Shown here piece by piece: positions 4,737-7,700 of a stretch of 64,000 bases of DNA. The notes under the pieces were generated by a model. That model saw nothing but the letters and a program-made list of their open reading frames with translations. It did no database searches and was not told the origin of the DNA. This DNA is from an uncultured Chthonomonadaceae bacterium (GTDB lineage Bacteria > Armatimonadota > Chthonomonadetes > Chthonomonadales > Chthonomonadaceae), in the NCBI GenBank assembly GCA_963835065.1, contig CAWIEK010000002.1, positions 128,001-192,000 on the forward strand. Direction: 5' to 3'. A program made the translations under genes and the position numbers. Every line of letters begins with the position of its first letter. Positions within the stretch are counted from its first letter, which is position 1.

Positions 4737-7700
4737 CTATCCTACAAACAGCCGCGCCACCGCATCCCGCAGCGGATCGGTTTCCTGCGCAAGGGCGGCG
4801 CGGGCGAAGATTAGGCCGGGATTGGGGGCGCGCATGGCGCGGGACAGGACGCCGTAGCCGGTGTGCGCCTGCTCCGCGAACATCTCTTTTTGGATCGAAA
4901 CCCATTGCGTTATGCCCCGCGCCATGCCTTCGCGCGAACCGATGCAGTTCATCAGGAACTCCGGGGGCGTCAGTCCTTCGCGGTAGCCATGCCGAATGGT
5001 GTAGGTACTTCCATTCAGCGCGGCTACGACGCCCTGCGCGGCGACGGCTTTGAGCAGCAGTCTCATGCCGCCCCGCGCTCCACTGGCAAGCGTCAGCAGT
5101 ACGGGGTCGGACAGCGATTCCGGCTGCCGCATCCGTTCGGCAATGCGGGCCGCGAATTCTTCCAGCCAGGCGTTCCATTCCTCGGGCGCGTCACGGATTG
5201 GGCGAACCGGGGCGGGCCAATTTCTGCCCAAAAACGGCCCGTATCCCCCGCCGATGTGCCGCGCCGCTTCAAAGCCGCGCAGCGTCAGGCGGTGCAGAAT
5301 GTCCAGAACGGGTTCCACAGCCGCATGGCCTTCCTTCAGCAGTCGTTGGCGCAAAGGCTCTTCCAATACGCCCCGCGCTAAAAGGCCGTTTTGAAGCGAC
5401 AAAGGCTGTTCCAGGATGTGTTCGATTTCAGCGCGTCCGGTGGGCGTTCGCGCTAAAAAGGCCAGTCCCAGGCGGGAGTCATGCAAAGGACGGAGGACAT
5501 TCAGGGTTTCCACATCCCGCCGCAAATGCCCGGCAATCGTAAGTTTTTCGCCTGCTTCCATTTGCGCCGCTTCCGTGATAGGCAGAAACACGCTGACCGT
5601 ATCCCCGTCAAAATCCAATTCCATCAGGCTGCATGTAAACGGATGTACTTGAATGGTTTGACCGGAAACGCGAACCGGATGGAAGGCCACAATGCCAGTT
5701 GGCGTGATTGTCGGGGCGCGGTTGAGCAATACCCACGAACGCGCCATGATGCGGTCCAAAACCTGCGCGGCGGCCTCACTGTGGGCTTGTACGGCTTCCA
5801 CGCTTCCCATTTCGCGCGCGACTAGCGGCGCGAACAGCGTCCACGCGATTTCTTCCGGCAACCCCACTTGTTCATAGGATAAGCCCGCGCCAATCGTCGC
5901 CACCGCCCGCCCGCTGAACTGCGTCCGCGCGCCGAACTCCAGATGATCCGGCGTGAGCAAAACCGCAAAGAAGGCTTGCAGGCGCGTTTGCATATCCGTT
6001 CGCGCCTTTAACAGCAGGCTGTCGGGGGCTTGCCCGTCCAGCATCCGCGCCAATCGCCCGCTTGCTTCCGCCAGTTCGCCATATTCGGGCAGTTCCACAA
6101 ACGCGCCGATTGCGGACAGCGTAATTTCCGGGTTCCAGGGGTGCGGCGCAGATTCCGCCAGGCGCAAGATTTCTCCTTCAGGTTCCTCGTTCCCTTCAGG
6201 TTTCTCGGCAAACTTTTCACTCGCTCCCTTATTCACGCCTTCGCCGGCCTCTTCAGCCGCTGCTTTATTGGCCTCTTCAGCCGCTGCTTTATTGGCCTCT
6301 GCATCGGTCTTTTCACTTGGTTTAGAAGCTGTCTGCGCCAGCCGAAACGTCAGCCCGTGTTCGGAAAAGTCGCTGACAATGCCGCCAACCGCCAGCCGAC
6401 GCGCTACATCCGCCCATTGCGGCGAGGGTGGCGTGGATTGCGCAACCGGGCCGGCAATCAGCCGTTCCGCCAGCAGGGGCGCGTCCACACGCGCGGCAGC
6501 CCGCGTGTTGAACGTTTCGCGGATGTTTTCCGTCGCGTCTGCGATGCCCAGGGCGTGGAACTCCGCCTGCCCAATGCCGCGAACAGTGCGCGGGCGTTGC
6601 CGTCGCGTGGATTTTGTCACTCGCAAGGTGGTGCAGCCTGCCCCAATACACCCACCCCACCGTACTCGGCACGGACATGGGCGGGCCGTGCCGGTTGACA
6701 CTCAGCATCCTCATGCCATCCGGCGGCAGTCCCGCAGCCACAATACGCGCTTGCAGTTCCTCATCTTTGGGCGCAGCGAACGGCGGCACGATAACGGGCA
6801 GCCCCTCCTGTTTCGCCACACAACTCAGGACGGCTTCCCGTATCTGTCCGAGTACCATGCGGCTGTGCAGGCTCATCGGGCTAAAAACCAATTCTACGGG
6901 CGTCCGCCGCTCACCGCCGCGTTTCTTCATTTCGCCTTGCTTCGTGTCGCCTTGTTGCGCTTCGCCTTGTTGCGTTTCCTCATCCTCGCCTTCGGCTGTA
7001 TCCGTTTCGAGGCTTTCGCCTGCATCCGTTTCTATCAGATGCGGCATTTCGTCGTCCGGCACGATACGCGCAATCACGCCCTTGCTGCCGTGCCGATTGC
7101 TCAATTTGTCGCCGGGCTGCACGGCAAATGGATAATTCAGCCGCGCCGCGCACGATTGGCTGATGAGAATACCGTCCTCAAACGTGTCCAATCCCCCGGA
7201 AACATACGCCGTCAGCAGATTGCGCCCGCACCAGAATTCCGGCGCGTCGGGCGGTTCGCTGCCGGTTTGTATCAGCGCCGGTTCCGGGTCGGGCGGCGTT
7301 ATCCATTGCCGGAGCATGTTGACTCCCATCACCAAGCGGCACGGATCATCGTGTTCCAAAAACGGGATCATGCGCGCGTTCGCGCCCAAATTTCCAAGCG
7401 GGCTGTCGTCCACAACGATCAATTTGCCGTCGCGTATCGCCGCGCCCGTCGCCACCACCAGAATACGCCCGATGTTCGGACCCTCCGGCGTTTCCAGCGG
7501 ACACGCGCGCCCAAAGTGTCCCGGCGTAAACATGCGCGGCTTTTCCGGCACGGCGATGCGGCGCAACTGCGTTTGCCGCTCCAGCCACCGAACCTCGGTT
7601 TCCCAGGACATCCGGGGAAATGCCTGCCCGCGCAGTCGAACAAACTCCCCAATCCATGTTTCCAGCGGCAGCCAGGCGCGCAGTAAATTCTCATTCCATT

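Follow-up and report, generated by a model that had tools for sequence, protein, structure and literature searches.

The 64,000-nucleotide stretch of DNA analysed here (the window; contig CAWIEK010000002.1 of assembly GCA_963835065.1, from an uncultured Chthonomonadaceae bacterium) encodes on its minus strand a miniature RNA polymerase (RNAP) core, in which a beta-like and a beta'-like part are fused and the trigger loop is missing. The fused gene runs from about 8103 (or 8175) to 4737, and its beta'-like 3' end contains the catalytic loop ELDFDGD. Its architecture and deletions, the purifying selection on it, its strict linkage to one sigma factor family and one promoter, and the presence of a normal rpoBC alongside are matters of observation. 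A preceding sequence-only reading of the 3' end had pointed to an altered active centre without a trigger loop; the observation is confirmed, and the interpretation is partly supported. What matters most is that a core under selection and linked to a sigma factor has lost its trigger loop throughout the family; the replacement of Asn by Glu is the minor part. The features that most constrain function, namely the beta-beta' fusion, the obligatory extracytoplasmic function (ECF) sigma factor and the private promoter, lie outside that reading. The trigger loop is treated as universal in cellular RNAPs; in this widespread family, which is under purifying selection, it has been cleanly deleted and the metal site retained. 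The parts of the gene needed for this argument are as follows.

6577..8103, minus strand: beta-like half of the fused mini beta-beta' gene, starting at 8103, or at 8175 if coupled to the sigma stop codon
4737..6575, minus strand: end of beta and beta'-like half, with clamp core, clamp helices, double-psi beta-barrel A (DPBB-A), partial funnel, F-loop, bridge helix and C-terminal clamp segment
4872..4967, minus strand: bridge helix, predicted at its full length of about 31 residues (helix 406-437 in the model of the window protein, 974-1004 in that of the relative P0002)
4737..4859, minus strand: C-terminal clamp segment, which follows the bridge helix after a link of about 7 residues; the trigger loop, the jaw and the second zinc site have been lost

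The short tail after the bridge-helix motif GSREGMA, with neither a trigger loop nor a Cys cluster, is as the earlier reading described it. GSREGMA (4940-4920) is followed by 20 residues and then by GYGVLSRAMR, which opens the C-terminal clamp segment; the stop codon is at 4739-4737, and the 287 residues after DFDGD contain one Cys in total. The model ends on a residue aligned with E. coli beta' 1354, and the segment gives a weak profile match in the KTTRVLTDAA region (E 0.016). For the family, 169 full-length proteins were reduced to 91 at <80% identity, and the residue tallies given below out of 91 refer to this set. R780 and the clamp motif are 31 residues apart in 79 of them (range 27-38). 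A trigger-loop profile from canonical RpoC, run on 234 family rows (169 + 65, overlapping sets), found no trigger loop (best E 3.1 in the family, 1.6e-26 in the control). The N-terminal half of the bridge helix is conserved across the family and its template-contacting C-terminal half is not, whereas T790, Y795 and R798 are present in 30/30 canonical RpoC proteins. In the AlphaFold model of P0002 (pLDDT 92.7, pTM 0.89), a 31-residue bridge helix is followed by an 8-residue link and two short helices, and a model of the last 481 residues of the window protein (pLDDT 92.1) agrees with it. About 470 of these 481 residues align to E. coli beta' 100-1354 (Z about 29, root-mean-square deviation (rmsd) 5-5.5 A), an alignment that gives ranges only and not residue-level pairing. 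The structural check that the earlier reading had proposed, for a substitute or cryptic loop, revealed none in either predicted apo model. By profiles and models alike, then, the loss is real and family-wide. Closure of the trigger loop is reported to speed RNAP catalysis about 10^4-fold (PMC7862312), and on sequence and predicted structure the mini-protein cannot be a normal fast polymerase.

The family is large and maintained by selection. At E <= 0.001, 581 homologous proteins were found among 7,996 scored candidates, and among 120 listed, 100 have at least 950 amino acids with both beta and beta' domains. The hosts, taken from the best 80 of 532 matching genome stretches (the set behind all locus counts out of 80), include Poribacteria, Latescibacterota, Chloroflexota, Armatimonadota, Planctomycetota, Hydrogenedentota and others. 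The distribution is patchy, with the mini-gene present in 4 of 40 relatives. The carrier genomes have a canonical rpoB in 31/32 and a canonical rpoC in 30/32 cases, and the genome studied here also has both (contig C48). In a tree of DPBB-A, 23 family rows (every fourth of the 91) were split from 27 canonical rows with support of 100/100, the family branches being longer. Comparison of this copy with L050, its closest named relative (71%, labelled Chthonomonadaceae), yields a ratio of nonsynonymous to synonymous substitutions (dN/dS) of 0.13-0.29; three other pairs gave 0.16-0.22 and an rpoC control 0.115; the pair L043/L088 was saturated and gave no value. This purifying selection means that the mini-protein is not a vestige, and, together with an Asp triad that is among the most conserved positions, it speaks against the suggestion that the enzyme is catalytically vestigial. 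An origin from mobile elements was considered and rejected: viral contigs gave one weak partial match and none of full length, and 80% query coverage was reached by 0/67 plasmid and 0/37 phage records.

The change in the catalytic loop itself is easily located. In what follows, residues of the mini-protein carry what we take to be their E. coli numbers (e.g. Asn458).

5601..5621, minus strand: ELDFDGD catalytic loop, with Asn458 changed to Glu (codon 5621-5619), Ala459 to Leu, and the Asp triad intact; 5615 is the first Asp
5712..5723, minus strand: NRAP motif with the equivalent of beta' Arg425, which is Arg in 86/91 homologs

The Glu codon is covered by an independent contig, X2 (~93% identical), with no change at 5619-5621 among the 10 of 14 differences listed, and the Glu is probably real rather than a sequence error. 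The closest relatives read NLDFDGD or GLDFDGD, so on present alignments the Glu is private to this lineage. Across the family the consensus reads NADFDGD, and position 458 is Asn in 68, Asp in 12, Gln in 7, Gly in 2, Glu in 1 and His in 1 of the 91 homologs; ELD is thus not the defining alteration for which it had been taken. Among 65 more divergent representatives (mean identity 39%) the counts are Asn 37, Asp 18, Glu 4, Gln 3, Gly 2 and Ser 1, whereas Asn458 is found in 30/30 canonical RpoC proteins of carrier genomes. The DxDGD motif is conserved among homologs, an alignment that the earlier reading had asked for: D460 is present in 90/91, D462 in 91/91 and D464 in 91/91, and the triad is kept in 63, 63 and 62 of the divergent 65, three of which (P0156, P0157, P0190) have lost one or more of these Asp residues. 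On a tree, position 458 needs 13 changes, 12 of them forced by well-supported branches. Proteins without Asn458 are not more changed elsewhere (2.0 vs 1.65 of 27 sites, p = 0.15). As judged from these comparisons, Glu458 is lineage-specific drift at a site relaxed family-wide.

The ribose contacts of RNAP are reported as Arg425, Asn458 and trigger-loop Gln929, with Arg425 the major determinant of 2'-OH selection and N458S cutting selectivity <5-fold (PMC7862312). The proposal of a sugar-promiscuous enzyme, made on the basis of Asn to Glu, is thus weakly founded because this protein and most homologs retain Arg425, on which ribose selection chiefly depends. In E. coli RNAP, a large effect of N458S on RNA cleavage is described (bioRxiv 2024.06.20.599782).

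The NRAP Arg, the beta ED, both Lys of GDK..KG and the Arg of SRM, which had been listed as kept, were all located. The beta-type motifs, FEDG (7182-7171), GDKLSNRHGSK (7113-7081), HSRM (6867-6856) and RLHHL (6639-6625), all on the minus strand, sit in a different frame from ELDFDGD, upstream of a one-base break. The beta-like half carries the fork and rifampicin-pocket region, DPBB-B and the equivalents of E813/D814, K1065, K1073, R1106 and H1237. In the 91 homologs K1065 is kept in 89, K1073 in 86, R1106 in 88, D814 in 83 and Q688 in 90, and E813 (77), N458 (68) and R731 (73) are less constant. This copy keeps 26 of 27 tested active-site positions, and the intact homolog P0032 all 27; on average, 1.6-2.0 of the 27 sites invariant in canonical enzymes are changed per mini-protein. 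Severe changes do occur in individual homologs (K1073 to Met/Ile/Ala/Gly, R425 to His/Cys/Ser/Pro, E813 to Ala/Trp, D814 to Arg/Tyr). The rifampicin-pocket residues are Q513 in 71, H526 in 78 and D516 in 57 of the 91, and this copy has Gln in place of His526. In the host canonical RpoB proteins (L104-L133), the same pocket has Ser in 4 and Asn in 1 of 27 at H526, Thr in 4/27 at R529 and Ser in 3/28 at N568.

Outside the active centre, much of the polymerase is gone. The P0002 model aligns to beta with Z 29.5 and rmsd 2.5 A over 499 residues, and two DPBB domains, which define the two-barrel superfamily, are present; DPBB-A bears the DxDGD loop and DPBB-B two Lys. When aligned by profile with RpoB and RpoC of a relative, the mini-protein proves to lack the bulk of the beta N-terminal and lobe region, the external domains and the whole flap, together with 11 residues of fork loop 2, 15 of switch 3, part of the funnel, the rudder and most of switch 2. 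The flap site is a 23-residue gap in 83/91 homologs. Since the beta' part begins at about residue 100 in the structural alignment, the zinc-binding domain is gone as well. The lid, too, is most likely deleted, and the invariant HPW would be the HIW/HVW strand of beta'. The profile alignment, unlike the structural one, puts HPW on the lid; that assignment was dropped because of the structural start at beta' ~100. Among confidently aligned positions that are invariant in canonical enzymes, 49/127 (beta) and 33/101 (beta') are kept at >=90%, and these cluster on the barrels and the RNA/NTP (nucleoside triphosphate) pocket. The curated models TIGR02013, TIGR02386, NF007172 and NF011417 gave 128-173 bits, below their cut-offs of 801-5372. 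One further element bears on sigma binding.

5967..6083, minus strand: clamp helices (coiled coil), in which the canonical sigma70-binding residues are replaced (residue tallies from the 91 homologs)

Here R275 is changed to Ala in 74/91, E295 to Ala in 78/91 and A302 to Arg in 56/91, as compared with R275 in 28/28, E295 in 28/28 and A302 in 27/28 canonical proteins, while the helices are retained as a fold in the predicted models. In E. coli, R275, E295 and A302 are needed for sigma70 binding or holoenzyme formation (PMC8321222, citing earlier work).

A dedicated sigma gene and a promoter-like element precede the mini-gene.

8172..8762, minus strand: dedicated ECF sigma factor of 196 amino acids (Pfam Sigma70_r2 and r4_2; TIGR02937 above cut-off)
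8880..8905, minus strand: ECF-type promoter-like element, TGAAC (8905-8901), 15 nt, GGTGTC (8885-8880), conserved upstream of sigma

The sigma protein has regions 2 and 4 only, about 200 amino acids and the DxxQ core-binding motif, as expected for the ECF group (group 4). It retains D45/Q48/E49 (DxxQE) like the genome's other ECF factors, and W61, W112, D115 and W188 are specific to its family. Its stop codon overlaps a possible ATG start of the mini-polymerase gene, and in 65 loci the sigma stop lies 18-288 bases (median 42) ahead of the first conserved motif. A cognate ECF sigma gene is immediately upstream in 74/80 loci; five of the other six have <200 bases of upstream sequence, and one (L037) has the promoter only. 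The genome concerned, G011, has two copies, one with the promoter directly upstream and no sigma gene (L037:5147) and a sigma-linked one on another contig (L017:7903). Conversely, 12 genomes in a 201-genome sample of the phylum have the sigma gene, and the mini-gene is adjacent in 12/12; four of these were found on inspection, having been missed by a short query. Among the 80 loci listed from a metagenome scan with divergent members, most were canonical rpoBC and four (L165-L168) were family members: L167 has an upstream sigma gene, none was seen at L165, L166 has no upstream DNA, and L168 gave no match, its start not being examined. Besides sigma, no neighbour recurs across phyla, and there is neither a conserved anti-sigma gene nor a recurring alpha gene. 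The trees of sigma and mini-protein are congruent (39 pairs; Mantel rho 0.72, 0/2000 permutations as high), as linkage alone would predict. No longer form and no sigma-mini fusion was found among 120 candidates of 1146-3270 amino acids, which is a weak test.

GAAC-N17-TGTC is found in 66/71 sigma-upstream regions and the strict form in 56/71, against 0.14% in shuffles, and this conservation suggests that the TGAAC-N15-GGTGTC element acts as a promoter. A T nine bases past the -10 box (window position 8871) occurs in 29/36 non-redundant promoters. Because 12/14 of those whose leader is at least 45 bases long also keep it, this T is unlikely to be only part of a ribosome-binding site, and it may mark a constrained start region. 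The strict motif is not clearly enriched in the bacterium's own genome (2 matches vs 1-4 at wrong spacers) or in five others (4/9/4/5/8 matches vs 5/7/1/2/14 for a reversed control), though sigma may have a wider, degenerate regulon. Deletion of the flap tip is reported to block use of the -35 element (PMC8321222).

Among known systems, the closest is the bacterial RNAP core itself (RpoB and RpoC, including the full-length RpoBC fusions of NF007172 and NF011417). Homology is direct and the fold matches both subunits at Z about 29, with both DPBBs, the Asp triad, K1065/K1073/R1106/H1237/R425, clamp helices, F-loop and bridge helix in common. The mini-protein differs in size (about 1,000-1,060 amino acids, vs about 2,960 for beta plus beta' of G005), in lacking the trigger loop, flap, lobe, jaw, lid, rudder, switch 3 and zinc sites, and in being an accessory alongside an intact rpoBC. 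YonO of prophage SPbeta, as presented in PMC5467207, is similar in being a single chain of about 100 kDa with the Asp triad and no trigger-loop sequence homology, and is there said to be more error-prone and to show no hydrolysis. That description, with few residues common to cellular RNAP, also sets this phage enzyme apart from the mini-family, which is collinear with beta/beta'. Unlike YonO as so described, the mini-family has no segment able to hold a loop, is chromosomal, and is paired with an ECF sigma. P23-45 gp96/gp64, phi14:2 gp66 and QDE-1 share a single-chain two-barrel core with bridge helix (PMC10770324). The DP2 subunit of archaeal PolD is presented as a two-barrel core that works without the mobile helices of RNAP; it has no bridge helix and has a KH-like domain, whereas the mini-protein retains both the bridge helix and Arg425 without any added domain (PMC6355029). 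As for gene order, ECF sigma/anti-sigma operons likewise have an autoregulatory-type promoter, a sigma gene and a closely coupled downstream partner. This succession is the general pattern of ECF operons. Unlike in them, the partner here is an RNAP-core homolog.

The reading that we tentatively favour, at somewhat less than even confidence, is that the mini-protein is a non-processive polymerase mimic, made by host RNAP with the cognate sigma, which serves as sigma partner and decoy rather than transcribing. The sigma factor would work with the host core, since DxxQE is kept and a two-part promoter of fixed spacing would need the flap that the mini-protein lacks. The sigma/mini cassette would be the main output of the circuit, because the promoter is not clearly enriched elsewhere. 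The mini-protein, encoded in the usual place of an anti-sigma gene, would then hold sigma in check, as suggested by the absence of a conserved anti-sigma gene and by its descent from sigma's natural partner. Sigma would be freed, and more decoy made, when the intact metal, nucleotide and RNA-end pocket binds a ligand, be it a nucleotide, an RNA end or an inhibitor directed at RNAP. Asn458 could drift to Glu in such a protein, as the job of the site, seating the NTP ribose with trigger-loop Gln929, would have lost its partner. Slow residual chemistry would be allowed without being the main function; transcription of a 3.8-kb operon is unlikely without trigger loop, lobe, jaw, lid, rudder and switch 3. 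Drift at pocket positions that are constant in canonical enzymes, beside a nearly invariant Asp triad, the unconserved template-contacting half of the bridge helix and the promoter-linked second copy in G011 also speak for this reading.

Several points weigh against this reading. The sigma-binding clamp residues are replaced and flap and lid are gone, so that the mini-protein may not bind any sigma, though the same clamp-helix replacements could equally give specificity for the cognate one. Almost every residue for the substrate phosphates and the RNA end shows 85-99% conservation, which is above the obvious need of a pure decoy. YonO is described as an efficient polymerase without trigger-loop homology (PMC5467207). 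Part of the drift in the pocket is general, because the mini-family evolves faster overall. As for a sink for rifamycins in particular, the rifampicin pocket is not especially conserved and carries His526 to Gln in this copy, which argues against it, and this variant was disfavoured.

A possible if doubtful alternative is a two-metal enzyme, slow and distributive, with a short primer-template or an RNA 3' end as its substrate, for which sigma would be a regulator only, with no contact between the two; nucleotide addition, pyrophosphorolysis and hydrolysis are candidate chemistries for it. It would account for the retention of the triad, metal-B, triphosphate and RNA-end residues (75-100% in the family), the remodelled or deleted sigma-binding surfaces, the promoter-only second copy in G011 and an open cleft which, without lobe, jaw and lid, would let in other substrates. 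PolD, on the published account (PMC6355029), offers a two-barrel polymerase without bridge helix, and the reported strong effect of N458S on RNA cleavage (bioRxiv 2024.06.20.599782) can be read in the same direction. Homologs under purifying selection nevertheless carry severe changes at K1073, R425, E813 and D814, no neighbouring gene hints at a substrate, and an autoregulated sigma would be left without a brake. Rather less probable is a true mini-holoenzyme, in which mini-core and cognate sigma open the private promoter and make full transcripts or short abortive products, the full-transcript variant assuming an unrecognised trigger-loop substitute. Strict gene pairing, congruent trees, the clamp helices kept as a fold, the family-specific sigma residues, the partly conserved T after the -10 box and the precedent of YonO in PMC5467207 are all consistent with it. 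Against these stand the models, in which 470 of 481 residues map on canonical beta' elements and no substitute loop appears, and the absence of the flap that a -35/-10 promoter requires, as well as of lobe, jaw, lid, rudder and switch 3; the congruence of the trees is explained by linkage alone.

That the gene is a decaying relic or an assembly artefact of a duplicated rpoBC is very improbable indeed. This copy and that of L050 (with two breaks at other places) are frameshifted and the distribution is patchy, but this explanation is contradicted by the low dN/dS, by the number of homologs and of full-length fusions, by the single clade apart from canonical RpoC, and by the nature of the break.

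6575..6577 (~6576), minus strand: one extra base splitting the fused gene into two frames; missing from bridging contigs, and relatives are fused

RNA polymerase domains are recognised in the two overlapping frames (6322-8598 and 4737-6701), those of beta being PF04565 and PF00562 and that of beta' PF00623. The base was placed from relatives at 73-75% identity, whose reading frame is uninterrupted across the junction. It is absent in 3/3 public contigs bridging the break (X1, X2, X4). One of these has no other difference over 151 bases and may come from the source sample, and the remaining two belong to diverged relatives. In the same assembly the genome's own rpoB (contig C48, ~60,900-65,200, L101) is in 8 pieces over three frames next to an intact rpoC, while a same-genus genome has rpoB in one piece. 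Because so essential a gene is split, split genes in this assembly are to be distrusted, and the extra base is probably an assembly error. Without it the protein has 1,121 or 1,145 residues, including two low-complexity inserts. A programmed frameshift was also rejected, since relatives are fused and the breaks of L050 sit elsewhere.

If the favoured reading or the second enzymatic one holds, the consequences would be considerable. In the former, at least six phyla would have turned a copy of RNAP into a sigma-restraining, ligand-reading, self-amplifying sensor-decoy for attacks on transcription; alternatively the family would be the smallest sigma-using two-barrel enzyme, with chemistry that needs no trigger loop. 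We put this pair of outcomes, as worded, at a little under an even chance. A sensor-decoy for attacks on transcription would be a kind of regulator not described before, and a sigma-binding decoy would be a new class of ECF regulation. The family also offers a natural minimal core, one chain of ~110 kDa with a confident model, as a test of the two-barrel centre without trigger loop, flap and lobe, and a route to why Asn458 is invariant only where a trigger loop is present. No description of a sigma/mini-polymerase system was found in the full-text literature, a scope without subscription papers, bioRxiv supplements and Iyer and Aravind 2012, and the ECF classification paper PMC7826278 gives no Rpb/RpoB/RpoC context in its text or in one supplement. 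ESM Atlas clusters of the family carry only automatic names.

Some minor observations concern the locus and single-chain paralogs. The low-complexity inserts at ~6180-6335 and ~6905-7030 are private to this copy, and a 24-base duplication at 6278 is missing from contigs X2 and X3. Short heptamer-like repeats (CAGGGAA, TCATCAC and CAGGTTT/CAGGTGT types) flank the mini-gene at 8050-8160 and 4610-4735, and many contigs of the same genome contain matches to the upstream repeat in translated form. ESM Atlas contains other fused clusters of 1,330-1,790 amino acids. In G059 a 1,919-residue single open reading frame (L164:7024-12783, plus strand) fuses RpoA-like (PF01193, PF01000), beta and beta' domains; its chromosome also has canonical rpoBC and the mini-gene, so that this fusion is a second kind of single-chain RNAP paralog.

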